Below are positions 239-18,676 of a DNA stretch of 33,971 nucleotides, one piece after another; the stretch's first letter is position 1, and each line of letters starts with the position of its first letter. The notes beneath the pieces are model-generated. The model was given only the letters and a program-made list of their open reading frames with translations, was not told the DNA's origin and ran no database searches. The position numbers were made by a program, and so were the translations under genes. The stretch spans positions 1 through 33,971 of the forward strand of contig JBGTGL010000017.1 in assembly GCA_041746755.1 (NCBI GenBank). The letters run 5' to 3'. The stretch comes from Acidimicrobiia bacterium (GTDB lineage Bacteria > Actinomycetota > Acidimicrobiia > Spongiisociales > ZC4RG35).

Positions 239-2311
239 ATGACTGATCATCAAAACCACCAGGCGAAGGGCCTGACCGGGACCGGTAGCCATGAGGGAGA
301 CGACAAGAGTTCTGGCTTAACCGGTCACTCCCCTCACGGCGGCCACGACAAGCACGCTGGTCACAGCGTGGCCATGTTTCGTGACCGATTCTGGCTCTCA
401 CTGGCACTGACTCTGCCGGTCGTCTTTTACAGCGAGATGATCCAGGAGTGGTTCGGTTACACCGCTCCGGCCTTTCCCGGCTCAGAATGGGTCGCCCCGG
501 TCCTGGGAACCGTCATCTTTTTCTATGGGGGGTCGCCGTTCCTAAAGGGTGCCGTTCAGGAAGCACGCGACCGTCAGCCAGGAATGATGCTGCTGATTGG
601 GATGGCCATCATCGTGGCCTTCGTCGCTTCGGCGGCCACCACTTTTGGTTGGTTCGACCTCGACTTCTGGTGGGAGCTGGGGGCCCTGATCACCATCATG
701 TTGCTTGGGCATTGGATGGAGATGCGGGCAATCGGCCAGGCCCGGGGAGCATTGGCCGCTCTCGCCGAGCTTTTGCCGGACGAAGCAGAGAGGGTCATCG
801 GCGACGGAACTGAAACGGTATCTCTCGCCGCTCTAGCGGTTGACGATGTCGTCCTGGTCCGTCCGGGTGGGCGCGTCCCCGCCGACGGGGAGATTGTCAG
901 CGGCGAGGTCGAAGTCGACGAGTCGATGGTCACCGGCGAGTCCAAACCGGTAGCGAAGAGTCCAGGCGACAAGGTCGTGGCCGGAACCGTCGCCACCGAC
1001 AACTCGATCAGGGTGCGGATCACTGCCGTAGGTGAGGACACTGCTCTTGCCGGCATCCAGCGTCTGGTAGCGCAAGCCGCAGAGTCTCAGTCCCGGGCCC
1101 AGGTGCTGGCCGACCGAGCAGCTGCCTTGTTGTTCTATGTTGCTGTGACTGCTGCGGTGGTCACATTCGTGGCATGGCTTATCGTTGACCAGCCAAATCA
1201 AGCTGTGGTGCGGACCGTCTCTGTGTTGGTCATTGCTTGCCCCCACGCCCTCGGTTTGGCTATTCCCCTGGTCATCGCGATTTCAACCTCGATGGCTGCC
1301 CGCGACGGGATTCTGGTCAAGGATCGTCTCGCTTTCGAGCGAATGCGCAACATAGATGTCGTCCTGTTCGACAAAACCGGGACCCTCACCAAGGGAAGCC
1401 ACAAAATTACCGGTGTCGTCTCCGTCGACTCCGACAACGACCGGCTCGTCGCCATCACCGCAGCAGTCGAATCTGACTCTGAACATCCGCTGGCCCGGGC
1501 AATTGTCACCGCCGCCAGAGAGCGGGGCACTATTCCTGTCGCCACTGGGTTCAAGGCGATGAGCGGCCGAGGAGTCCAAGCCGACGTCGATGGACAGACA
1601 GTGGCTGTCGGGGGCCCGGCGCTCCTATCGGAGCGCGGTGTTGAAGTCCCGAAGGCGGTAGGGGAAGCGGTGGACGCCTGGAAACAAAGAGGCGCCGCCG
1701 TGCTCTACGTTATCGAGGGCGACCAGGTCACTGGTGCTCTCTCCATGGAGGATGAGATTCGACCCGAATCCAAGAAAGCCGTCGACGAGCTTCATGGTCT
1801 TGGGGTGAAAGTAGCGATGATCACCGGGGACGCCCACCAGGTCGCCGAAGCCGTGGCGGCCGAGTTGGATATCGACTACGTCCTTTCTGAAGTCCTCCCC
1901 GAGGACAAGCATGCCAAGGTCGCCGAGTTACAGCGGCAGGGCCTCAAGGTGGCCATGGTTGGTGACGGCGTCAACGATGCTCCCGCCCTGGCGCAGGCCG
2001 ATGTTGGTATTGCCATCGGAGCCGGCACCGATGTCGCAATCGAATCCGCAGGGATCGTCCTCGCCTCCGACGACCCCCGGGGAGTCGTCGGAATCCGGAG
2101 ACTTTCTCAGGCGGGGTATCGCAAGATGATCCAGAACCTGGTCTGGGCAGCGGGATACAACGTTGCTGCGATCCCCCTCGCTGCGGGTGCCTTTGCCTGG
2201 GCAGGGATCGTCCTCGGACCCGCTCTGGCGGCGGTGCTGATGAGCGCATCAACTGTCATCGTGGCCATTAACGCTCAGCTCCTACGTCGGGTTGAGCTTC
2301 GTCCGTCATGA
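239..2311 (+). CDS. copB: P1B-3 (CopB-type) copper-exporting P-type ATPase
   Basis: His-rich N-terminus, TGES, IACPHALG (CPH motif), DKTGT, SEHPLA, GDGVND, YN and MSAST in the last helices. Start moved from 110 to ATG 239 because the promoter lies at 128-159. Confidence 0.92.
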   Translation: MTDHQNHQAKGLTGTGSHEGDDKSSGLTGHSPHGGHDKHAGHSVAMFRDRFWLSLALTLPVVFYSEMIQEWFGYTAPAFPGSEWVAPVLGTVIFFYGGSPFLKGAVQEARDRQPGMMLLIGMAIIVAFVASAATTFGWFDLDFWWELGALITIMLLGHWMEMRAIGQARGALAALAELLPDEAERVIGDGTETVSLAALAVDDVVLVRPGGRVPADGEIVSGEVEVDESMVTGESKPVAKSPGDKVVAGTVATDNSIRVRITAVGEDTALAGIQRLVAQAAESQSRAQVLADRAAALLFYVAVTAAVVTFVAWLIVDQPNQAVVRTVSVLVIACPHALGLAIPLVIAISTSMAARDGILVKDRLAFERMRNIDVVLFDKTGTLTKGSHKITGVVSVDSDNDRLVAITAAVESDSEHPLARAIVTAARERGTIPVATGFKAMSGRGVQADVDGQTVAVGGPALLSERGVEVPKAVGEAVDAWKQRGAAVLYVIEGDQVTGALSMEDEIRPESKKAVDELHGLGVKVAMITGDAHQVAEAVAAELDIDYVLSEVLPEDKHAKVAELQRQGLKVAMVGDGVNDAPALAQADVGIAIGAGTDVAIESAGIVLASDDPRGVVGIRRLSQAGYRKMIQNLVWAAGYNVAAIPLAAGAFAWAGIVLGPALAAVLMSASTVIVAINAQLLRRVELRPS

Positions 2312-7762: not shown

Positions 7763-7791
7763 AAAGTAAAACCCGCACCGGGTGGTGCGGG
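7763..7791 (-). terminator. Intrinsic terminator downstream of hisD
   Basis: Minus strand CCCGCACC-ACCC-GGTGCGGG followed by TTTTACTTT. Confidence 0.75.
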
Positions 7792-7916
7792 ATCCAAGTG
7801 GCTGAACCTTCGAAATGGTTAGTTCACAGCGAATCCCTGCCACATTTTGAATGTGGTCGTAGCGGTCCGGGTACACATCGCGTTTCTCAAGATCACACGT
7901 CGTACCCGTGCTGTTA

Positions 7917-9170
7917 TCACGCGTCAAAAGTCCGCCGACGGGCAAGGGCAGCCCGGGCGTGGCCTTCCAGCCCTTCGAGCCTTGCAAGCGCCGTCACGTC
8001 TTGCACCATCGGAGCTGCATCTTCGACTTGAAGCCATGTCTGGGGTCGGAGAAATGTCGAGATCGACAATCCCGCATGAAACCTCGCGCTACCTCCCGTA
8101 GGGAGGACATGGTTAGGTCCGGTTCCATAGTCGGCAAACGCCTCGGCAGATTGCGGGCCAAGGAATACTGAACCGTATTCGGTGAATAGGTCAGCCTGAG
8201 CTAGGGCCTCTTCGGTGTGGAGCGCCAGATGCTCGGGAGCGAGCGCGTTGCTGATCATCGCCGCGGATTCGATATCGTCGACTACGACTGACATCCCCGT
8301 TGCGAGCGCATCGGCCGCGATCGTGGCAGTAGGCAGGTCGTAGAGTTGAAGGGCTATTTCGCCGTCCACGCGGTCCATGAACTCGAAGCTGAACGCTACG
8401 AGGATCGGCCGGGCATCGGGGTCGTGTTCCGCTTGCGCGATGAGGTCACGAGCCACCAGCGACGGATCTGAGGTGGAGTCGGCGATCACCATGATCTCGC
8501 TTGGCCCGGCCAAACCGTCAATCCCGATTTCACCAAACAGGTGCTTTTTTGCGGCGGTTATCCACTTGTTGCCAGGCCCGACGATGAGGTCACACCGCGG
8601 TGAGAGGGTCCCGAATGCCATGGCTGCAATAGCCTGTGCGCCGCCGATGGCGAGAAGTCCATCGGCCCCGGCGACGTGGGCCGCCGCGAGAGTGACCTCG
8701 TTAGGGCGAGGAGAAGCAACCCAAACCTGCGTGACGCCAGCCACCCTCGCCGGAACCACCGTCATCAGAACCGTGGAGGGCAGGGGGTAGCGGCCACCCG
8801 GAGCGTAAGCGCCAACCGAGGCAACGGGTCTCAGGATGTGACCCGCCCGGCCACCCGGTACTTCAACGTCCAGGTCTGAAAGGGTTGCCCGCTGTGCCCT
8901 GGCGAAGCGTTCGATTCTCGACGCAGTTCGTTCCAGGAGTTGTCTGGTCACATCAGAAACCGATTCATACGTGTTGCCGAGTTCTTCGGGTCCGAAAACG
9001 AGTTGGTCTCCGGCAGTTAAACGGTCGAACTCGGCCGCATAGCTGCGAACTGCCGACTCTCCGCGGAGACGAACGTCTTCGACAATTGCGATTGCGTCGG
9101 CAAGGGCTGAAGAATCGAGAACTTGGCTTCTCGCCATGGCCGTCATCTCTTCAGGTGTCTTTCGGATCAT
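7917..9170 (-). CDS. hisD: Histidinol dehydrogenase
   Basis: YAPGGRYPLPS, GGAQAIAA, GPGNKW, AGPSE, QAEHD, APEHL, GPNHVLPT. Confidence 0.96.
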   Translation of the reverse strand: MIRKTPEEMTAMARSQVLDSSALADAIAIVEDVRLRGESAVRSYAAEFDRLTAGDQLVFGPEELGNTYESVSDVTRQLLERTASRIERFARAQRATLSDLDVEVPGGRAGHILRPVASVGAYAPGGRYPLPSTVLMTVVPARVAGVTQVWVASPRPNEVTLAAAHVAGADGLLAIGGAQAIAAMAFGTLSPRCDLIVGPGNKWITAAKKHLFGEIGIDGLAGPSEIMVIADSTSDPSLVARDLIAQAEHDPDARPILVAFSFEFMDRVDGEIALQLYDLPTATIAADALATGMSVVVDDIESAAMISNALAPEHLALHTEEALAQADLFTEYGSVFLGPQSAEAFADYGTGPNHVLPTGGSARFHAGLSISTFLRPQTWLQVEDAAPMVQDVTALARLEGLEGHARAALARRRTFDA

Positions 9171-10435
9171 TTCTGGTTACTGCCTTTGGCGAGCATCGGC
9201 CGTCTTGACACGTTGAGTTCCCTGCGGTCCAGGATCCCCGCGATGGCACCGAGGTCCGCCCCTGCGGACACTGCTTTTACCAGCGTGAAGTAGATAAGGT
9301 CGGCCGCCTCTCGTGCAACGGCGTTCTTGTCGGACGATGCTGCCAGCTCGCCTGCTTCCTCAACAAGCTTCGCAGCCAGTAGTGACGGATCTTTCAGTAA
9401 CGACGCGGTGTTCGAATCAGGCTGAGGTTTGTCGGCCATAGTCCTGAGTCGTCTGGCCAATCTGGTGATGCCGCGGTCATCGCCCCAACAGGTTCGACGG
9501 TCCAAGTGACAGAACCCGGGTTCGGCTTGTTCGACCACGAATCGAAGTGTGTCGCGATCACAGTCGGCATCGATCGAAAGCAGCGTCTGAAGAGCTCCAG
9601 AGGTCTCGCCCTTGACCCATGAGCCGCGGGATCGACTGTGATAGACCCCGCGGCCGGTTTCAACCGCAGATCTGACGCTGGCGAGGTTCGACCAGGCCAT
9701 GCCGAGTGCGACGCCATGTTCATCGGTGACAACAGTTGGCCACAGCCCGTCTGCCCGGTCTGACTTCAGCGGAGCGGTCAGTGCTTCGGCCAGGCCAAGC
9801 TGACCCGTGTAAAGCGCCATGCCGACCTGTGCATCGGCGCCCAACTCGTCCAGCGCCGCTATCTCGTCTGCAGTCGTGATTCCGCCGGCGATCGTGACCC
9901 TGGTCTGCCGGGCTGCATCCGCAACACGCGCTGAGCGCATTAGGTCCGTCCCGGCGAGCCGTCCCTCTCGTTCGACAAATGTGATCAGAAAGCCGCCGCA
10001 GAGGCCACGGAACCGATCGATTGAGTCGAAAAGGTTGGTGCCAGTCTCCTCTCGCCAACCATGGGTCACGATCAAAGAGTCGCGTGAATCAAGGGCGACG
10101 ATCACACGATCTCGGGGGAGGGCAGATAGCAACGGTTCATCTGCTGCTGTGCCGATGATCACTTTGTCGGCTCCCGAATCGAGCCAGTGCAGGGCGGTGG
10201 CGCTGTCCCGTATTCCGCCACCAACTCTCACCCTGCCCATGCCGCAGAGTCTCTCGATGAGTTCTGAGTTTTGGCCCACACCTCGTGCCGCATCGAGATC
10301 GATCACCGCGACTTCGCCTACTACCGAGAACTGTTTCATCTTCTCGATCGGGTCGGCCGTGACCAGGGCAGCGCCCTCGCCTCCCTCGAGTTGGACTGCT
10401 CGACCCTCCGTCAAGTCGATAGATGGGACGATCAT
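9167..10435 (-). CDS. HisA-like isomerase / HisI cyclohydrolase / HisE pyrophosphatase three-domain fusion
   Basis: N-terminal IVPSIDL, IDLDAA, VGGGIR, IGTAA, ALD, AGGI (HisA/F barrel). Middle YHSRSR..WVKGETSG, DCDRD, FCH....TCW (HisI). C-terminal KLVEEAGEL...EAADLIYF (HisE). Confidence 0.9.
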   Translation of the reverse strand: MIVPSIDLTEGRAVQLEGGEGAALVTADPIEKMKQFSVVGEVAVIDLDAARGVGQNSELIERLCGMGRVRVGGGIRDSATALHWLDSGADKVIIGTAADEPLLSALPRDRVIVALDSRDSLIVTHGWREETGTNLFDSIDRFRGLCGGFLITFVEREGRLAGTDLMRSARVADAARQTRVTIAGGITTADEIAALDELGADAQVGMALYTGQLGLAEALTAPLKSDRADGLWPTVVTDEHGVALGMAWSNLASVRSAVETGRGVYHSRSRGSWVKGETSGALQTLLSIDADCDRDTLRFVVEQAEPGFCHLDRRTCWGDDRGITRLARRLRTMADKPQPDSNTASLLKDPSLLAAKLVEEAGELAASSDKNAVAREAADLIYFTLVKAVSAGADLGAIAGILDRRELNVSRRPMLAKGSNQK

Positions 10436-11184
10436 GGACGGACCCCGAACCCGGCTCTTGATAGACCCGCCTTGATGTCGCTGACTGTGGTGTGGCGATC
10501 ATGGAGAATCGACGCCGCCAACACGGCCGATGCTCCGGATCTGAAAGCTTCGACCATGTGCTCGACAGATGCCGCCCCGCCCGATGCCACAACAGGAATT
10601 GTGACAGCTGCCGACACGTCGCGAATCAGATCCAATTCATAGCCATCGCCGGTCCCATCCTTGTCCCAACTGGTCAGGAGTATCTCGCCGGCGCCAAGTC
10701 CTTCGGCTGTCTCACACCATTCGACTACGTCGATCCCGGTCGATGACGCTCCGCTTTGGACCACCACCTCCCACGCCGTCTCTTTGAACCTCGCATCAAC
10801 GGCGACAACGACGCACTGGGCGCCGAATTCTCTCGCCAGCTCCTCGATCAGTTGAGGGCGCGCCACTGCTGCGGTGTTGACTCCCACGCGGTCGGCGCCG
10901 GCGTCGAGCAAACGGGCAGCGTCGGACAGAGCGCGCACCCCGCCACCGACGGTCAATGGGATCGACAGTTTTTCGCGAATCCCACGCACCACTTCGAGAT
11001 TGTTGGCACGCCCCTCCGGTGTGGCCGAGATATCGAGTAGGACGATTTCGTCGGCACCTTGTTCTTCGTAGATGAGCGAGTTCTCGACTGGATCACCGGC
11101 ATCCCTCAGATCCTGGAACCTGACGCCTTTGACGACACGGCCGTCAGCGATGTCGAGGCAGGGAATCACCCGCGGCGCCAGCAT
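10432..11184 (-). CDS. hisF: Imidazole glycerol phosphate synthase cyclase subunit
   Basis: MLAPRVIPCLD, VVKGV, GADE, PLTVGGG, GAGEILLTSWDKDGT, ASGGA. Start ATG 11184 overlaps the hisH stop. Confidence 0.96.
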   Translation of the reverse strand: MLAPRVIPCLDIADGRVVKGVRFQDLRDAGDPVENSLIYEEQGADEIVLLDISATPEGRANNLEVVRGIREKLSIPLTVGGGVRALSDAARLLDAGADRVGVNTAAVARPQLIEELAREFGAQCVVVAVDARFKETAWEVVVQSGASSTGIDVVEWCETAEGLGAGEILLTSWDKDGTGDGYELDLIRDVSAAVTIPVVASGGAASVEHMVEAFRSGASAVLAASILHDRHTTVSDIKAGLSRAGFGVRP

Positions 11185-11792
11185 CAGGACACCACCTGTG
11201 ACATCGTCAACCACCTCGTCAAGACTCGAGCACCCCAAGACCCGGACAGCTCGGGATGAAACTGGCATGCGAGGATGTCACCCCTCTCCAGTGCCGACAC
11301 AAATGCGCCCCGGTGGTCGGTAGTTGCCCCAACCCACCCGCCCGGAATAGATGCGAGGCGGTAGGAGTTGGCAAAATACGCCCATCCCGGCTCGATAAAG
11401 CGACATCCGGAAGCCGGTGAAACCAGATTCCATCCCAGCTGGGGCGTCTTGGCCCCGTTCCCAAAACGGGAAACCTGTTCCGCGATGAGGCCCAATCCTT
11501 CGACACCGGGGCTCTCGCTGCTCACCTCGGCCAGCAATTGCATGCCGACACAGATAGCAAGAGTGGCCCGGCCATCGCGCATTCGATCGACTAATGCGCC
11601 GCGCACCCCTTGGCGATCAATGGCGGCTGCCGCGGCCCCAAAGGTTCCTACACCGGGCAAGACAACACGATCGGCCTGCACGATGTCGCTCACATTTCCG
11701 CTGACGGCGGGGTGGGCACCGAGCCGCGAAAAGGCAGCCAGGACCGACGCAGTATTGGCAGTACCGGTGGGCACTATCACCAAACGGCTCAC
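11184..11792 (-). CDS. hisH: Imidazole glycerol phosphate synthase glutaminase subunit
   Basis: LPGVGTF, ICVGMQLL (catalytic Cys), PQLGWN, YFANSY, QFHPELS. Confidence 0.95.
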   Translation of the reverse strand: MSRLVIVPTGTANTASVLAAFSRLGAHPAVSGNVSDIVQADRVVLPGVGTFGAAAAAIDRQGVRGALVDRMRDGRATLAICVGMQLLAEVSSESPGVEGLGLIAEQVSRFGNGAKTPQLGWNLVSPASGCRFIEPGWAYFANSYRLASIPGGWVGATTDHRGAFVSALERGDILACQFHPELSGSWGARVLTRWLTMSQVVS

Positions 11793-12373
11793 TGCAGTGT
11801 GCCTTTCGTGCTGGGCACTCCATCGCCGGTTACGGAGACGGATTGTGCCAGGGCCAGAGCGACTGCCTTGAAGGCTGCTTCGGCCTTGTGATGATCATTG
11901 TCTCCCTTCAAGACGTCGACATGAAGTGCAAACCGGCCCTCCAAGGCGAAACTTCGGAAAAAGTGCACCAGATTTTCGGAAGCAACTTCCCCGATCTTCT
12001 CCCTCTTCAGAGACAACCCTATGTCCGTCCACGGGCGGCCCGAGATATCGACCACCGCCCTGGCGAGCGCTTCATCCAAAGGGGCGTACGCATTGCCGAA
12101 GCGGGCGATCCCTTTTCCCTCGCCGATGCAGTCGAGGAATGCCCGACCCAGGGCGATGCCACAGTCCTCGACGGTGTGGTGGTCGTCGGTTCCCAGATCG
12201 CCGCTAGCGTCCACGCTCAGGTCGAAACGAGAATGCTTGGACAATGTCGTGAGCATGTGATCGAGGAACCCGAGCCCGGTCTCTATCTGTGACTTTCCCG
12301 TTCCGTCGATGGAGAGCGAAACCCTGACCTCGGTTTCTGCCGTGGTCCGATTGAATTCAGAAATGCGTGTCAT
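11789..12373 (-). CDS. hisB: Imidazoleglycerol-phosphate dehydratase (monofunctional)
   Basis: RTTAET, FLDHML, DDHHTVED, PLDEAL, DISGRP, NDHHKAEA, VPSTKG. Start ATG 12373. Confidence 0.96.
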   Translation of the reverse strand: MTRISEFNRTTAETEVRVSLSIDGTGKSQIETGLGFLDHMLTTLSKHSRFDLSVDASGDLGTDDHHTVEDCGIALGRAFLDCIGEGKGIARFGNAYAPLDEALARAVVDISGRPWTDIGLSLKREKIGEVASENLVHFFRSFALEGRFALHVDVLKGDNDHHKAEAAFKAVALALAQSVSVTGDGVPSTKGTLQ

Positions 12374-14024
12374 CGAGGATCTCCTGTAGTTGGGCGGTCG
12401 AATTGAGGACTGCGGCGGCGTCGGCGAGCGCTCGCATAGCGTCGGTCGCACCTGGGCCTGATGCCGAGACCGCGATGGGGAGGACACCAGCCAGCCGTGC
12501 TGCGGCGATGTCATCACGAGTATCGCCCAGCAGCCAGCCATGGTTGGCCCCAAGCTTCTCCAGCGCCAAACGGACCGGTGCTGGGTCGGGTTTCATCGGG
12601 GCGTCGTCGCGGGTGACGACTATGTCGAAGAATTCCGTGAAGCCGAATCTCTCCAGCACCTCCTCGGCGTCTCGTCTCGGTCTCCCTGTGACAATTCCTA
12701 GTGGAAGCTTCGTTTTCCATCTGGCGAGAGTTTCGGCATCAACCAGTGGTTGTTCTCGGACCTTCAGCCCGGGACGGCCAGTGCTCCCCTGGTAGTTCGT
12801 CTCGAAACGGCGTATTACTTCGTCGGAATCGACCCGGACTCCGGAAGCGCCGCACAGGCGCATGGTGATGTCCCAATCGTCATTTGCATTTCCTGCTGTC
12901 TTGAGTGCTGAAATGTCAGCAGGCGTAACTTCCACTCCGAAGGAAGCGGCCGTGGCGATGATCGACTCGTGGTACGACTGGCTCACATCGACGATGACTC
13001 CATCGAGGTCGAAGAGAAGACACTCGGGGACGAGCACGGTGGTCAGCGATTCCACCAAACGCTTGAACTCGGATCGTCGGCCGGGAAGGCTGATCCGCAC
13101 GCTGTCGGCGAGTTCTTCCTGGCCTGGGAAGGTTCTGAGAGCGATACCCAGCGACCCCATGGCCCTGGTAAGCCAATCCGCGTTGCTCGTCGAGACGAGG
13201 AGGAAGTTTCCTTGAGATGAGAGAGCCTTCAGTCCGAAACTCTCGACCAGATCCTGCAGTTGCTTCCGTTCGACGCCCACTTCGTCGATGAAGCGCTTTC
13301 GGGGAGCAGGCTCCGATTTCAAGGCGAGCTCCGCGATATAGGCCGAGATGCCGGAGACAGGATACGGGCTGCCAAAAGCCGAAATCTTCTCGATGAGCTT
13401 CGTCGGTCCGATCAGATACCCGACCCTTAGTCCGGCAAGACCAAATGCTTTGGACAGCGTCCGGATCACGACCACGTTCTCGAGCTCAAGGGCAAGTGTT
13501 GTGAGATCTACATCGCCAAACTCCGCATAAGCGGAGTCGAGGACGACCAGGGGAGAACACCCGGCCAGCTGCCGGAGGTCGCTCGGAGTGATTGCTTGCC
13601 CGGTGGGGTTGTTCGGTGAAACCACGATGGAGAATGAGGATTCGGTGGCGGCGGCAGCGAATTCGTTGAGGGGAAAGGGGCCATCCCACCACGAGATGTC
13701 AATGCGGGTGGAGCGCGATTGCTCCCCGTACCTACGGACCATCTCGAAGGTGGGAGTCGTTGCGATGAAGGTTCCACCGGCCATGGCTAGGAAGCATCGA
13801 GAAAGGGCATCGTCCCCGCCCGCGGTCACCAGGACCTGTCCTTCCTCGATATGGTGCCGCTCTGCTATTGCCGATCGAAGCCGTGAGGTCCGGGGGTAGC
13901 GGTTCGCCAGACCTACGAGGTTCTCGATTGGTCCTACCGAATCGAGAAACCAGGACGAGCCCTCGTTTCTGGAGAGGTCCAGTTCGATTCGAGAGGAAGT
14001 CTTGGGAGGGTCGTATGGTGTCAC
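12357..14024 (-). CDS. hisC: Histidinol-phosphate aminotransferase fused to a C-terminal HAD phosphatase (putative histidinol-phosphatase)
   Basis: SPNNPTG, DSAYAEF, RTLSKAFGLAGLRVGY (PLP Lys). C-terminal FDLDGV, VTGRP, KPDP, GDTRDD (HAD motifs I-IV). Confidence 0.92.
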   Translation of the reverse strand: MTPYDPPKTSSRIELDLSRNEGSSWFLDSVGPIENLVGLANRYPRTSRLRSAIAERHHIEEGQVLVTAGGDDALSRCFLAMAGGTFIATTPTFEMVRRYGEQSRSTRIDISWWDGPFPLNEFAAAATESSFSIVVSPNNPTGQAITPSDLRQLAGCSPLVVLDSAYAEFGDVDLTTLALELENVVVIRTLSKAFGLAGLRVGYLIGPTKLIEKISAFGSPYPVSGISAYIAELALKSEPAPRKRFIDEVGVERKQLQDLVESFGLKALSSQGNFLLVSTSNADWLTRAMGSLGIALRTFPGQEELADSVRISLPGRRSEFKRLVESLTTVLVPECLLFDLDGVIVDVSQSYHESIIATAASFGVEVTPADISALKTAGNANDDWDITMRLCGASGVRVDSDEVIRRFETNYQGSTGRPGLKVREQPLVDAETLARWKTKLPLGIVTGRPRRDAEEVLERFGFTEFFDIVVTRDDAPMKPDPAPVRLALEKLGANHGWLLGDTRDDIAAARLAGVLPIAVSASGPGATDAMRALADAAAVLNSTAQLQEILDDTHF

Positions 14025-14899
14025 GGGACGATCTGCTCCAGTCCTGAAACGACGATGTCGCTGGCTCCGAATTGCTTCAATCTTGGAATCAGCTCGGGAA
14101 GCTCCGACCTCGGAACTGCCGCCTTGATGGCGTAGCCCGACCCACCGTGCAATGCCGATATCGTGGGCTCCCTCATGCTGGGAAGCGCGGCGACCACTCC
14201 CTCTACGTCATCCTCGGAGACATTCAGTTCAACCATCACTCGGCCCCGGGCATCGAGGACCGATCGGACACTCAGGGCGAGGCCATCAATGGCCGTCTTC
14301 TTGCCGGGGTCCGACAGTGCCCCACGGCTGGCGTAGAGGCGTGTGGTTGAGGTCATCAACTCTTCCACAATCACCAGGCCGTTCGCCGAGAGCGTTTCCC
14401 CTGTTGCGGTGATGTCGACTATGACGTCGGCGTCTTCGGGAGGAAAGACTTCCGTCGCCCCGTAGGAGCGGACAAAGACGGCGTCGAGATTCCTTTGTGC
14501 CGCCCAGTTTCGCGAGAGTTGGTCGAGTTCGCTCGCTACCACCAGGGGTCGATTTGGAAGTTTCCCGCCAACAAGGAGCGATTCTGGTGCAGCCGCCACG
14601 ACGCGGACGGGGTCGAGCCCGGTATCGAGCAGCTCCACGAGATCTTCCGCCTTCTCGGCAACCCAGTCGGCACCGACAAAACCGAGGTCGCGAGACCCGG
14701 CCGCAAGCATCTCGACGATGTTCTGAGGTTTGAGCACTTTCACTTCGAGTCCCGCCAGGGACGAGACTGGCCGGTATCCGCGGGGTCCCGACCGAAGCCG
14801 AATGCCCGCGTCGTCGAGTAGCTCTGTAACCGCCCGTTCGGTGCGTCCCTTTGGGATTGCGAGGTGGACTATGTCGTTGTTGTTTCGGGGAATGGTCAC
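14021..14899 (-). CDS. hisG: ATP phosphoribosyltransferase, long form
   Basis: LAIPKGR, DLGFVGADWVAE, GATE, DVIVDITATGETL, and a C-terminal regulatory domain (PTIS...LK..GASDI). Confidence 0.95.
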   Translation of the reverse strand: MTIPRNNNDIVHLAIPKGRTERAVTELLDDAGIRLRSGPRGYRPVSSLAGLEVKVLKPQNIVEMLAAGSRDLGFVGADWVAEKAEDLVELLDTGLDPVRVVAAAPESLLVGGKLPNRPLVVASELDQLSRNWAAQRNLDAVFVRSYGATEVFPPEDADVIVDITATGETLSANGLVIVEELMTSTTRLYASRGALSDPGKKTAIDGLALSVRSVLDARGRVMVELNVSEDDVEGVVAALPSMREPTISALHGGSGYAIKAAVPRSELPELIPRLKQFGASDIVVSGLEQIVP

Positions 14900-14938
14900 T
14901 TCGTGTGCCTTTCCGCCGATCTAGCGATGAGCGCTCCC

Positions 14939-14971
14939 AAAAGAAAAACGCCGACCGCTGGGTCGGCGTTT
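14939..14971 (-). terminator. his attenuator terminator
   Basis: Minus strand AAACGCCGACC-CAGC-GGTCGGCGTTT then TTCTTTT, about 40 nt upstream of the hisG start. Confidence 0.9.
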
Positions 14972-14993
14972 GGATTGGTTTAGCCCGTTTCAG

Positions 14994-15059
14994 CTACCCA
15001 CAACTCAGCCGACCCCTGAAGGGGTGGTGATGAGTGTGATGGGCGTGTACCTGAAACAT
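14994..15059 (-). CDS. hisL: His operon leader peptide MFQVHAHHTHHHPFRGRLSCG (21 aa, 6 His)
   Basis: ATG 15059 to TAG 14994-14996. Six His codons among codons 5-12, and the antiterminator arm GGGTCGGC lies inside the ORF. Too short for the ORF track. Confidence 0.88.
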   Translation of the reverse strand: MFQVHAHHTHHHPFRGRLSCG

Positions 15060-15067
15060 GAAGCAGG

Positions 15068-15097
15068 AACCTAACGCGACATTTGGGCAAATGTCAA
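15068..15097 (-). promoter_or_regulatory. Housekeeping-sigma promoter of the his operon
   Basis: Minus strand TTGACA (15097-15092), 18 nt, TAGGTT (15073-15068), 8 nt, then the leader ATG. Confidence 0.7.
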
Positions 15098-15162
15098 GGT
15101 GGGCTCATTCTCCCTCCACAAGCTTCTCCCCTCCACAACCAAGTGATGGAGGGTTGGAACGG

Positions 15163-15231
15163 GGTCGGAAACTCCATTTATTCGGGCGCCGGGGGGCGGC
15201 AGAGGTTGGGGGGTAATCGGGTGGTGTTGGC
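15163..15231 (+). repeat. Dispersed intergenic repeat, copy 5 (right part)
   Basis: 15163-15188 versus 7559-7584 is 23/26 identical; 15211-15229 is identical to 20-38. Confidence 0.85.
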
Positions 15232-15235
15232 GGGT

Positions 15236-16816
15236 TCAGGCTTCGTGGACCTGCGTGGCCAGACCGGCTAATCGTCTTCGATTGTCCTCGATGGTGTGGA
15301 GCGGGACAAACGCATTGGCTTCGAGCGCCTCCGATACTTCACGCCGCAAACTTGCCGCCATTTGTTTGCCCTTTTTGCGGCTCGAGATCGACGCCAGGAG
15401 TCGTGCTATCCCCCCGATAAGAAAACTGAACACAGCCGACACGACGAGTAGCGCCAATGGCGTGGGCACGGCTCCGAGAATCGGCAGGTCGAAGGTCTCG
15501 ACCGGAACCCCACCGGGCCCAAAGAGGATGATCAGATACCAGGCCACTGCGAAGGCAAACCCCAGCGTCGCTATCCATTGCAACGGAGAGAGCAACCAAG
15601 TCGACCACCCGGGCAGCTCTTCTAAATCCTTAGCGGTTGCCCTGACTGATTTGTCGATGGCACCCGAAATCGAGGTGCGGATCGCTTCCGGGTCGAACTG
15701 ACTGAGTACCGCGGCGCGGGCGGCCGGTCCTAGCGGTTCGGTGTACCGCAGATATGCAGAACGCACCGGGTTCACCGTCTTCCCGAGATCTCCGCGCCGC
15801 CGCCAATTGAGGAGATACATTTTCGGATCAGCGTGGCGCCGACGGTGGCCACCAACGTATCTGGCCAGGGTTCCAAACCGGCTCAGCAGCGAGCCCGCCC
15901 GGGTGCGTGCCTGCTCCAAGTAGAGATTTTTCAACTGAAGCTCTAATCCTTCAGGATCAACAATCTGCAACGCCGCGGTGGTCGCCTGTTTCACAAAAGC
16001 GGCCATCTCCTCATCGCCCACTCCAACAAAGCCCTCTCTTACACCGGCCGCCGCCGCCAATTCATCGAGACGCTTCCTGACTTCGGCCTGAATGTTCCCA
16101 ACAATCGCCTGCTTGGCATCGGCACCGTGCACCAAATCATCCCGAAACTTGTCTATTCCCTCACCGGTACTGGCGGATAGATGCCTGATCCGCGAGTTTT
16201 GTAGCCCCGACAGTTTGAGACGCTCTGCCAGGTGACTTTCCACAGCCTCGACGTCGTCGTCGTGAATCTGGTCGACCTTGTTAAGTATCACCTCGGCGGG
16301 CCGTCCGCCCCGGGAGACGTCCCGCAAGTAATGGTGGAGCCGCTCGTCGTCGTACTTCTCTGGATCGACCACCCACACGACAACATCGATTCGGGGGAGG
16401 AGGTCGTCAACGAGTCGACGGTGCTCAATTGCGATGCTGTCGATATCGGGCATATCGACAATTGCAACACCGGGAAGAGTCTCGTTGTCCCGGGTGGCCA
16501 CTCGGGTTATATCCAACCACTCCAAGAGAGGTTGCAATTCATCGAGAGCCGACTCGGTTACCCACGCCGTCGCTCGGTCTGTTGTAGGGCGGAGCACCGA
16601 GGCTTCCGAAACAGTCTCGCCAGCGAGCGCATTGAGGATGGACGATTTTCCGACCCCGGTCCCACCGACTAGTGCGACGAGGAAGCTGTTGCCGGTGAAG
16701 CTCACCCGCGTCCGCGCTGACTCGAGCGTCGCTTCGGCCGCGTCAACCTCGAGACCGATCGCTCGGCCCCGAGCGACACCGTCCTCGAGGAGTTCGATCA
16801 GGTCTGCCAGGTTCAT
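15236..16816 (-). CDS. Dynamin-like/YfjP-type membrane GTPase (second gene of pair)
   Basis: G1 GGTGVGKS, G2 LRPTT, G3 DMPD, G4 NKVD, helical stalk and two C-terminal TM segments. Confidence 0.8.
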   Translation of the reverse strand: MNLADLIELLEDGVARGRAIGLEVDAAEATLESARTRVSFTGNSFLVALVGGTGVGKSSILNALAGETVSEASVLRPTTDRATAWVTESALDELQPLLEWLDITRVATRDNETLPGVAIVDMPDIDSIAIEHRRLVDDLLPRIDVVVWVVDPEKYDDERLHHYLRDVSRGGRPAEVILNKVDQIHDDDVEAVESHLAERLKLSGLQNSRIRHLSASTGEGIDKFRDDLVHGADAKQAIVGNIQAEVRKRLDELAAAAGVREGFVGVGDEEMAAFVKQATTAALQIVDPEGLELQLKNLYLEQARTRAGSLLSRFGTLARYVGGHRRRHADPKMYLLNWRRRGDLGKTVNPVRSAYLRYTEPLGPAARAAVLSQFDPEAIRTSISGAIDKSVRATAKDLEELPGWSTWLLSPLQWIATLGFAFAVAWYLIILFGPGGVPVETFDLPILGAVPTPLALLVVSAVFSFLIGGIARLLASISSRKKGKQMAASLRREVSEALEANAFVPLHTIEDNRRRLAGLATQVHEA

Positions 16817-18477
16817 GCAGGATCCTGCAGGCTGAGCTCGAGGCCGATCTGTCGCAGCCTCTCGGCGACGGTTGCCGAGTCGGGAGAGATGGCCAGGGCA
16901 GATTCGAAGCGATCCGCCTCGTCTGTCAGTGCACCGTTAACGATCAGGTTGAGTTTCTCCCGGGAGCTGTCCACGAACCTCTGAACATTGCCTTCCCCAA
17001 AGATCGCCTCGAGGAGTGATTGGTTGACAAGAGCGGTAACCGCAGCGATACCAGCTTCGGCCCCGGTCAGTCCTCCGGTGTGGATGAACACGGCCAGGAT
17101 TGCGCCGGTTCCGACAACGTTGACCCCGAGGCTGGCCACTTTGGCAAAACCGCGAAGGTTCTCCCCCATTTCCGCTATCTCACCCGAAATCCCTGCGGCC
17201 CAGCCGTCCAGAGCGCGGTCCAGACTCCCCGCAAGGCCGTCCGATACCCCCCACAGCAACGGATCCCGTTCCAGGGCAGCCACTCCATATGGGCTCGAAG
17301 CCCACGACGAAGCTGTTTCAGCAGCGGCCTCGTCGGCCTGAGACACCACCAGGGCCACCAGGTCGGAGAAAGCAGAGTCCTGAACCTCCCGGTCTGGTGC
17401 GGCCGGGCCGGGGTTGAATGCCGAGCGAATAACGGCCGCGACCTTGCCGACACCTTCCGAAATCACTCTTGCTACCCGGTTGGCCCCGACATAGTCATGC
17501 CACTCGCGGAGGACTTCTGAACGGAGAAATGTGCCCCGATCGATCCGGTCTTTGATGATTGCGGCATGGCGCTCGTACGCGGCGCCTCGCTTGGCCAAGA
17601 GTTGTAAAGCGCTTTCTGCCTCCCGATCTATCCCCGCCGCCATCTCATCGATTGGTCCCCGGAGGCCAGATAGTGCGCGATCCAAGGCATCCCGGGCAAG
17701 ATTCCGGCGATCCTCATCGTCGGCAGCAAGATGGTCGAGTGCGGAAGTGATGGGTGCGACCGCATTCGCGTCGAGACCGTCGACAGCCTCGTCGAGTTCT
17801 TCCTTGGCGATGCCAACGATCTCGAGGCTATCCCCCAAACCAAGGCCTCCAACTCCGTCGGCGGTTAATAGACGCCGGAAGTCTTCTATGACCAGATCCC
17901 GATCAACTTGATCGCGTGGCAAGCGATTTATCACGAAGAGAAGGGGAACACCCCGTTCCCGGGCTCGCCTGAGCACCGCCCAGGGAACATCATCGGCGTA
18001 TCTGGTGTCGGTGGTCACGTAGACCACCAGGTCAGCTGCTTCAAGAAGGCGACGGGCCAGGGCTCGATTGTCAGCTTCGATACTGTCGAAGTCCGGCGCG
18101 TCTATCAACATCAAACCCTGTCGGCCGCGTTCGTGGCGGGTGATCTCCAGGAGTCCTTCGCCTTCCATGGCTTGCAGCGGCGCCGGGAGGGAGTCTCCGG
18201 GGTGGAGAAGGACCTGACCTGTCATCGTGGTCGGGCGGAGCACCCCGACACGGCTCACATTCGCTCTGGCCAGGGTATTGAACAGACTTGACTTGCCGGC
18301 TCCTGTGGAACCAAGGATGACGACTACCAAGGGGGCGGATAGGTCTTGATGGCGGGGGATGACGTATTCCTCGAGGTGAGCACGTAACGTGCGGGCCCGG
18401 GCCTCCTCGTCCGGTCCAGGGGCATGAATAACCCGCTCGGCGAGCACAGCTGACAGCTCGGAAAGAAGGTCTTGCAT
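16813..18477 (-). CDS. Dynamin-like GTPase (first gene of pair)
   Basis: G1 GSTGAGKS, LRPTT, DAPD, VINR, hydrophobic paddle near the C-terminus. Start ATG 18477 (MQDLL); ATGA-type overlap with the partner. Confidence 0.8.
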   Translation of the reverse strand: MQDLLSELSAVLAERVIHAPGPDEEARARTLRAHLEEYVIPRHQDLSAPLVVVILGSTGAGKSSLFNTLARANVSRVGVLRPTTMTGQVLLHPGDSLPAPLQAMEGEGLLEITRHERGRQGLMLIDAPDFDSIEADNRALARRLLEAADLVVYVTTDTRYADDVPWAVLRRARERGVPLLFVINRLPRDQVDRDLVIEDFRRLLTADGVGGLGLGDSLEIVGIAKEELDEAVDGLDANAVAPITSALDHLAADDEDRRNLARDALDRALSGLRGPIDEMAAGIDREAESALQLLAKRGAAYERHAAIIKDRIDRGTFLRSEVLREWHDYVGANRVARVISEGVGKVAAVIRSAFNPGPAAPDREVQDSAFSDLVALVVSQADEAAAETASSWASSPYGVAALERDPLLWGVSDGLAGSLDRALDGWAAGISGEIAEMGENLRGFAKVASLGVNVVGTGAILAVFIHTGGLTGAEAGIAAVTALVNQSLLEAIFGEGNVQRFVDSSREKLNLIVNGALTDEADRFESALAISPDSATVAERLRQIGLELSLQDPA

Positions 18478-18676
18478 TATCGGCCCATTCCTGAGGAGCG
18501 GGGGGAATTGCAGACGAGAAGCGGGGAGGGGTTGGATGCGACGACAGCCCAATTCTATCGGTTGCCTGGGATGTATCCGGCTGGGCCGTCTTCCCCGGCA
18601 TGTCGCCACAACGATTCAAAGTCCCGGTCGAGCGTGTCGAACCATCCGGGGAGGTAGCCGCGACTTGTCCTAAAAG

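Follow-up and report, generated by a model that had tools for sequence, protein, structure and literature searches.

What controls the histidine biosynthesis operon carried on a 33,971-nucleotide (nt) stretch of DNA from an Acidimicrobiia bacterium (contig JBGTGL010000017.1 of assembly GCA_041746755.1), and does the short, histidine-rich open reading frame (ORF) that precedes hisG together with a terminator take part in that control? The whole stretch is called the window below. The answer favored here, and considered highly probable from the sequence, is that the element upstream of hisG would be a classical ribosome-mediated his attenuator, with a sensor ORF that would be translated from a leaderless or nearly leaderless messenger RNA (mRNA). 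The observations that bear on this answer are the sequence elements themselves, their conservation, their covariation and their thermodynamic plausibility.

A histidine-codon leader in front of hisG

The product of the leader ORF, MFQVHAHHTHHHPFRGRLSCG*, has 21 residues, of which six are histidine (15059..14994; Table 1), and the small hairpin ACCCC-TTCA-GGGGT follows the histidine run at 15025..15012, both as described in an earlier note made from this sequence alone. The 3' arm of the hairpin is part of region 2 (GGGGTCGGC). Region 2 is in turn complementary to region 3 (GCCGACCC), the 5' arm of the terminator, so the claimed complementarity between leader and terminator is present, as is the strong U-tailed terminator, with 11 pairs and a U-tail (TTTTTCTTTT) that reaches 14939. 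Folding of the 172-nt leader gave a z value of -4.5, and none of 200 shuffles folded as well. Furthermore, in a scan of the whole genome (2.19 megabases in a 210-contig assembly), 2,038 combinations of a short ORF with a terminator were tested, and the leader ORF was the only one with at least four histidines in an 8-residue window; it has six, and the next best had three.

Conservation was examined first of all at the level of HisG. Among 41 relatives, 15 genomes (the window's included) encoded a HisG 57-100% identical to that of the window, and 10 genomes encoded only a HisG about 30% identical to it. The leader-type HisG occurred in 31 of 401 genomes of a class-wide sample, a tally that includes one genome whose locus was left out of further analysis; all 31 belonged to the window's order and were distributed over five GTDB families. 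The leader-type hisG loci examined numbered 35 (HisG of the relatives 57-75% identical), one of which starts at a contig edge, leaving 34 that could be evaluated. All 34 carried a His leader of 17-22 codons with 3-6 histidines, located approximately 135-235 nt upstream of hisG, and the peptides mostly end in ...HHHH(H)PSRVG*. The search for His-rich short ORFs with covarying stems upstream of hisG in relatives, which the earlier note had suggested, was therefore positive at every evaluable locus, and the stems covary as detailed below. No such leader was present at the 10 loci with the other, ~30% identical HisG type; two ORFs at these loci passed a crude histidine filter, and were not accepted as leaders, having scattered histidines and lying more than 300 nt upstream. 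None of the 34 relatives shares the gene that precedes the window's leader, while hisC followed hisG in 31 of 35 loci, which indicates that the leader belongs to hisG and not to the preceding gene.

Two broader scans gave a similar distribution. An exact-pattern scan of species genomes yielded at least 119 loci among the matches listed. At least four histidines stood just before the stop codon in 33 of these 119, and all 33 had hisG downstream; the other 86 listed loci had neither a histidine run nor a downstream hisG and were set aside as chance or repeat matches, e.g. palindromic repeats in Stenotrophomonas. The close matches listed bore the record titles uncultured Acidimicrobiia, Acidimicrobiaceae or Acidimicrobiales. 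A covariance model was built from the 34 homology-found sequences and holds only the helices of regions 1:2 and 3:4. It matched 23 times in 151 genomes of the order, and 22 of these matches were true, with one copy per genome, each either carrying a His leader and lying upstream of hisG or truncated where its contig ends. There were no matches in 146 sampled Actinomycetota outside the order. Matches L188, L203, L204 and L205 were counted as false, as they are terminators without His codons or hisG.

Covariation and folding of the switch segments

Covariation was evaluated on 46 model-aligned sequences, with a shuffle control that ignores relatedness. In the consensus of these sequences, region 1 comprises the end of the histidine run and a proline codon, region 2 reads GGGTCGGY, region 3 GCCGACC and region 4 GGTCGGC, followed by the U-tract; region 2 overlaps the stop codon (TGA) in most members. 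The antiterminator helix (2:3), which lies outside the covariance model, was paired in 97.5% of 322 alignment cells, with three pairs and 10 cells changed on both sides, a level reached by none of 500 shuffles, and slid controls were paired in 9-48%. The terminator together with the region 1:2 helix was paired in 95.9% of cells (changes on both sides at seven pairs and in 21 cells, a level that none of 500 shuffles reached), and the terminator alone in 97.1%, with compensatory changes at four pairs. The region 1:2 helix had also been proposed to extend further at its lower end; only 63.6% of cells paired there, and this extension is not claimed. The column holding the A of GCCGACC in region 3 is shared by both alternative helices, and its combinations with the partners in regions 2 and 4 were U-A-U in 36 sequences, C-G-C in eight and a wobble in two (U-G in the antiterminator, G-U in the terminator), without a mismatch among the 46. 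A shared column that changes along with both of its partners is what two mutually exclusive helices predict. The covariation, as far as aligned sequences can speak to structure, supports all three helices (1:2, 2:3 and 3:4).

The same 46 sequences were folded with a masked stretch mimicking the ribosome. In the free nascent RNA, upstream sequence kept region 2 occupied in 40 of 46 cases, and the 2:3 helix formed in five. With the mask at the first histidine of the run, 2:3 formed in 46 of 46 sequences, and with the mask at the second histidine in 45; placed at the last histidine, the mask allowed 2:3 in 34 of 46. When the stop codon was masked, the terminator formed in all 46. The geometry is likewise uniform, with the stop codon falling within region 2 or immediately beyond it in all 46 sequences and the last His codon 7-11 nt from region 2.

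The window and one other member (L158) have independently gained a single extra base in the small hairpin, which shifts the frame by +1 and makes the ORF 12 nt longer. Both shifts replace the C-terminus of the peptide completely and keep every RNA segment. Because the tail of the peptide is altered while the RNA elements are retained, selection acts on the RNA and not on the peptide. The longer ORF of the window ends 26 nt before region 3, and a terminating ribosome would thus cover region 2 and leave the terminator free.

The start of the sensor ORF and two further leaders

In the window, the 8 nt between the -10 hexamer and the ATG (CCTGCTTC) are pyrimidine-rich and contain no purine-rich motif or Shine-Dalgarno (SD) sequence, and reading of the sequence confirmed this arrangement as it had been reported. 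A sigma-70 consensus scanner called no promoter at the leader, since TAGGTT fails the scanner's rule for a -10 element. As the scanner missed this hexamer, the evidence for the promoter consists of the hexamers as seen in the sequence and of their conservation among relatives. A TAnnnT hexamer precedes the leader ATG by 8-11 nt in 33 of 34 loci (8 nt in one, 9 nt in 12, 10 nt in 18 and 11 nt in two), a TTGnnn hexamer stands 16-19 nt upstream of TAnnnT in relatives, and an SD-like 4-mer was found before the ATG in only three of 34 loci. Among members of a second, phylum-level group (described below), most of those inspected by eye have a -10-like hexamer 7-9 nt before an ATG or GTG.

In Corynebacterium, transcription starts 7 +/- 1 nt from the -10 element, as given in a review (PMC3896937). 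Under this rule, the gap of 9-10 nt seen in most relatives would place the start 0-3 nt upstream of the ATG, which counts against a strictly leaderless transcript and makes that term uncertain. A leaderless sensor ORF is plausible on the basis of this spacing, and a 5' untranslated region (UTR) of 1-3 nt would be just as likely as none. The description of the leader as apparently leaderless in the earlier note is plausible in view of the missing SD and the promoter placement at 33 of 34 loci, and in most relatives a UTR of 0-3 nt would fit.

Could the stalling switch be real and its mRNA not leaderless, with transcription starting further upstream and the ORF translated by another SD-independent route? 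This is unlikely, though the -10-to-ATG distance of 9-11 nt in 32 of 34 loci is greater than the 6-8 nt that usually separate a -10 element from the start, so that a short 5' UTR could fit, and a promoter that the sigma-70 scanner did not call would be in line with a start elsewhere. Such a start would not, however, account for a spacing that is held at 8-11 nt in 33 of 34 loci and at 7-9 nt in most second-group members inspected, nor for the lack of an SD-like motif in 31 of 34. In the window, which has an 8-nt spacing, no purine within range precedes the A of the ATG itself. The fixed geometry furthermore recurs at tryptophan (15 loci) and cysteine (19 loci) leaders.

The Trp leader, MTAQHLTRNAFATWWWQWIAPEVAS* (with the motif WWWQW), is found upstream of trpE (L189:198-345; G000 contig C141, ~13447-13594, forward strand), starts 10 nt after a TACCGT -10 hexamer and is followed by an antiterminator/terminator pair. 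A tryptophan-rich leader with a -10 hexamer was present in 15 of 28 evaluable trpE loci of relatives, one trpE locus having been left out of the count, and 14 of the 15 had a terminator; all 15 were among the 17 loci whose TrpE is at least 55% identical. The Cys leader, MNRHFSPCVCGCTCCAASPRG* (five Cys), starts 7 nt after a TACCAT -10 hexamer upstream of a PALP-family (cysteine-synthase-like) gene (L190:159-290; G000 contig C159, ~1808-1940, forward strand). All 19 PALP loci of relatives had a cysteine-rich leader with a -10 hexamer at 7-11 nt, and a simple scan found a terminator at 16 of them. In both the Trp and Cys leaders, the terminator has a 5' arm that is complementary to the last part of the ORF. 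For the Cys sensor ORFs of mycobacteria, control of translation with no terminator is described (bioRxiv 10.1101/834739), so the Cys leader with its terminator may be more novel than the His leader. The strongest reason, from sequence, to expect that sensor ORFs would be read from the 5' end is the fixed promoter-to-ATG geometry found at three unrelated operons.

The proposed switch, its precedents and its operon

We infer the start of transcription, the translation of the leader ORF and the response to histidine, and predict the 3' end at the terminator. A search for sequence records covering 13500-15400 of the window listed seven, all of them DNA contigs and none RNA. Transcription would start at the leader ATG or no more than about 3 nt from it, and a ribosome would load on the 5' end and read the 21-codon ORF, with the outcome set by the supply of histidyl-tRNA. 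When histidyl-tRNA is plentiful, the ribosome would read on across region 2 (GGGGTCGGC) as far as the stop codon and so cover region 2; region 3 (GCCGACCC) would then pair with region 4, the terminator would form and transcription would end near 14940. In an RNA carrying no ribosome, region 1 would pair with region 2 and termination would follow likewise. When histidyl-tRNA is scarce, the ribosome would stall at the early His codons and cover region 1, so that region 2 would stay free to pair with newly made region 3. No terminator would form and the polymerase would enter hisG-hisC/HAD-hisB-hisH-hisF-hisA/IE-hisD. The linkage to hisG, the covariation, the masked folding and the selection at the RNA level all lend support to the putative stalling at His codons that frees an antiterminator, the mechanism put forward in the earlier note.

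Several observations weigh against this mechanism. In five of the 46 model folds, the free RNA already adopts the antiterminator. The U-tract is interrupted in many relatives (TTTCTCGTT), and the mechanism would require transcription and translation to be coupled in these organisms. With respect to the covariation, the antiterminator showed none beyond shuffles in the first 34 homology-found sequences, and the signal emerged only after more distant members were added. The compensatory changes, moreover, amount to few events in related sequences, with the C-G state occurring in three or four lineages.

Alternatively, the unit could be an independent small gene beside hisG, encoding a His-rich peptide (e.g. 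a metal binder) or a small RNA, and the terminator could be constitutive. A promoter and terminator of its own, delimiting a transcript of about 120 nt, would suit such a gene, but its probability is very low: hisG is the only gene that the unit precedes, and always directly, no second promoter is evident between the terminator and hisG, the peptide C-terminus varies over the two +1 shifts that preserve the RNA elements, and region 2 covaries with region 3, a dependence for which a plain terminator has no use. Least probable of all is that the hairpins are switched not by a stalled ribosome but by a factor acting in trans (a His-binding RNA-binding protein or uncharged tRNA-His, T-box- or TRAP-like), since despite the T-box control of his genes described for Corynebacterium (PMC9413887, PMC3896937) and the compatibility of an additional factor with the data, no T-box match, and beyond six chance-level ones to unrelated families no other Rfam match, was obtained at gathering scores or at E up to 10, and the in-frame histidine run, the stop codon at region 2 in 46 of 46 and the 7-11 nt gap are needed by a ribosome sensor and not by a factor-binding site.

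The ribosome-mediated attenuator thus preferred has the computational marks of a His-specific attenuator, namely a His-clustered ORF before a his operon, an intrinsic terminator and a mutually exclusive antiterminator. At gathering scores, Rfam gave no matches in the whole window; with E up to 10, six chance-level matches to unrelated families were obtained in 14850..15120, and neither His_leader (RF00514) nor the T-box was among them at either setting. The logic of the enterobacterial hisL leader, which the earlier note invoked, is nonetheless matched in design. As in hisL of Enterobacteria and other gamma-proteobacteria, there is a His-codon ORF with exclusive 1:2, 2:3 and 3:4 hairpins and a terminator before hisG, and stalling at His codons would free the antiterminator in both. 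In contrast to hisL, the leader described here has no SD and an ATG 8 nt after the -10 element, a shorter histidine run (3-8, mostly 4-6) and a stop codon in or just after region 2, and the order and fusions of the operon differ.

An actinobacterial precedent exists for an amino acid other than histidine. The ilvBNC attenuator of Corynebacterium glutamicum, by the title of a study by Morbach in 2000, reportedly has a leader peptide made without a ribosome-binding site. It is, like the present leader, an actinobacterial terminator-type attenuator with a sensor peptide lacking an SD; it differs in sensing Val/Ile/Leu and others, and the his genes of Corynebacterium are described as having either T-box-like leaders or leaderless transcripts without an attenuator (PMC3896937). 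For C. glutamicum, trp, leuA and aroF leader peptides are also described, and the account in question reports none for histidine (PMC4046766). The leaderless polycysteine short ORFs of mycobacteria, as presented in bioRxiv 10.1101/834739, work at the level of translation, hiding the SD of the following gene in a duplex of high stability, and have no terminator, whereas the leader described here has a conserved terminator and antiterminator and the hisG SD lies beyond the U-tract. The comparison with these ORFs drawn in the earlier note is apt, and the ilvBNC leader is the closer precedent.

Candidate His attenuators are described in Firmicutes, in the Bacillus cereus group, Peptostreptococcaceae and Erysipelotrichales (PMC9413887; see also PMC2965389). 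These are likewise lineage-specific, unseen by RF00514 and predicted by comparative genomics, with 3-5 consecutive His codons. They differ from the present leader in their phyla and, in several cases, in having hisZ or hisS as the first gene; the comparison is with their published description, which does not mention leaderless starts. In the same 2022 survey (PMC9413887), Actinobacteria appear under T-boxes, and Proteobacteria and a few Firmicutes under attenuators (new in three Firmicutes groups). A comparative study of Actinobacteria (PMC1262725) reports no conserved RNA structure upstream of histidine operons, and the Corynebacterium review (PMC3896937) describes leaderless his transcripts and a T-box-like leader, and in that account no leader peptide. 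The view that His leader attenuation is unestablished in actinobacteria agrees with PMC1262725 and PMC9413887 as far as these accounts extend. No description of the element was found in full-text literature on attenuators or leader peptides in Acidimicrobiia, or on a histidine leader or hisG in Actinobacteria/Actinomycetota. A 2015 conference paper by Korolev et al., known by its title and said to concern His-containing leader peptides in Actinobacteria, may bear on priority. The paper is cited, under that subject, in PMC4833913.

The distribution of the leader within the order is patchy. In the window's genus, 8 of 12 genomes have the leader-linked HisG type. Two HisG types, about 30% identical, coexist within one order and even within one family, and only one of them carries the leader. 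A quick HisG tree placed all leader-linked HisG in one clade (Shimodaira-Hasegawa-like approximate likelihood ratio test, SH-aLRT, 100), apart from the other type; GTDB families were intermixed inside this clade, the deep forks of the tree being unresolved. The patchiness of the HisG types and the intermixed families suggest transfer or repeated loss of the whole unit.

Judged by the covariance model, the leader family extends beyond the window's phylum. Two sets of 31 relatives each were scanned. Around a genome with the record title Phycisphaerae, five relatives had matches, several of which lie on large contigs; around one with the title Bdellovibrionales, two had matches, and both contigs are small. 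The phylum of the Phycisphaerae-titled genome is the second phylum-level group mentioned above, and 151 of its genomes gave nine matches. Six of the nine have a His leader together with a HisG that is 58-63% identical to that of the window, and three are bare terminators and count as false. The Phycisphaerae label of L061 finds support only indirectly, through PSD1-family genes in G042 and G642, a family linked to Planctomycetota. The record titles of several matches (Acidobacteriota, Armatimonadetes, Bdellovibrionales) may be unreliable. The one title checked, 'uncultured Acidobacteriota bacterium' (L095, G303:C1:1797663-1798526), belongs to a record that falls in the window's own GTDB family.

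It is possible, though we hold it only tentatively and with more doubt than confidence, that promoter, leaderless His ORF, switch and hisG move horizontally between phyla as one unit, that the same leaderless design governs Trp and Cys synthesis in the order, and that loading at the 5' end is integral to it, ensuring that sensing is coupled to the transcribing polymerase. If true, the horizontal unit would span Acidimicrobiia, the Phycisphaerae-labelled group and perhaps the Bdellovibrionales-labelled group, the leaderless start would be no accident of promoter placement, and the Cys member would be a terminator-type cysteine attenuator, no description of which was found.

Table 1. Features of the leader and the his operon. 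All attenuator features are on the minus strand of the window, and coordinates are those of the window.
Feature	Position	Strand	Basis or remark
-35 hexamer TTGACA	15097..15092	-	sequence read; 18-nt spacer to -10
-10 hexamer TAGGTT (TAnnnT type)	15073..15068	-	sequence read; ATG 8 nt downstream
Leader (sensor) ORF	15059..14994	-	ATG at 15059; 21 codons + TAG; 6 His; no SD
Region 1, His-codon stretch CAC GCC CAT CAC ACT CAT CAC CAC	15047..15024	-	3' end pairs with region 2
Small hairpin ACCCC-TTCA-GGGGT	15025..15021 + 15016..15012	-	directly 3' of last His codon
Region 2, GGGGTCGGC	15016..15008	-	pairs with region 1 (small hairpin + extension) or region 3 (antiterminator)
Region 3, GCCGACCC	14967..14960	-	strand common to antiterminator (with region 2) and terminator (with region 4)
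Intrinsic terminator	14971..14939	-	hairpin 14971..14946, 11 pairs, 4-nt loop CAGC, then U-tract
SD-like GGAAAGG	14914..14908	-	8 nt before hisG GTG
hisG, long form (HisG + HisG_C domains)	14899..14021	-	Pfam; GTG start at 14899; first operon gene
hisC fused to HAD phosphatase	12357..14024	-	Pfam
hisB/IGPD	11789..12553	-	Pfam
hisH	11184..11792	-	Pfam
hisF	10432..11268	-	Pfam
hisA-hisI-hisE fusion	9167..10435	-	Pfam
hisD	7917..9170	-	Pfam
Terminator-like hairpin + U-tract after hisD	7791..7772	-	likely operon end

A single leader fronts what looks like the whole his pathway, a complete seven-gene operon led by hisG. The SD of hisG is located approximately 25 nt past the U-tract of the terminator, and purine-rich motifs like GGAAAGG were also seen, uncounted, before hisG in relatives. 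The fusions in the operon are unusual, with HisC joined to a C-terminal HAD hydrolase (12357-14024) and HisA to HisI and HisE (9167-10435); the HAD domain is possibly the histidinol-phosphate phosphatase. In relatives of the same genus the HisC match ends at residue 331, and the HAD fusion may therefore not be universal. Directly upstream of the his promoter are two tandem large-GTPase genes (15236-18609, minus strand) with weak dynamin-family and MMR_HSR1 matches, which are not kept next to the leader in relatives. A threonine-rich short ORF, MCTRTATTTFKMWQGFAVN*, was also noted at ~7800-7915 (minus strand), between the hisD stop codon and the terminator-like hairpin downstream. With no obvious regulated gene following it, this ORF is probably a chance occurrence.

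The leader constitutes a well-conserved, uncatalogued sequence family of a textbook mechanism, and for its probably leaderless sensor ORF the phylum offers a precedent with another amino acid. The finding is solid, of use in annotation and as a model for experiments, and not surprising in kind. It fills a gap, as comparative studies found no his RNA control element in Actinobacteria and Rfam misses this one. With 46 aligned members, a covariance model and three-way covariation, the family can be defined for RNA databases and for the annotation of metagenome-assembled genomes, and it offers a clean natural system in which leaderless translation can be tested as the sensing step of transcription attenuation. 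For the organism, the sequence evidence indicates that the leader very probably lets a stalled ribosome switch on the operon when histidine runs short. For the family, the link to one HisG clade and the patchy spread over families and phyla suggest that the regulatory leader and its operon travel together.

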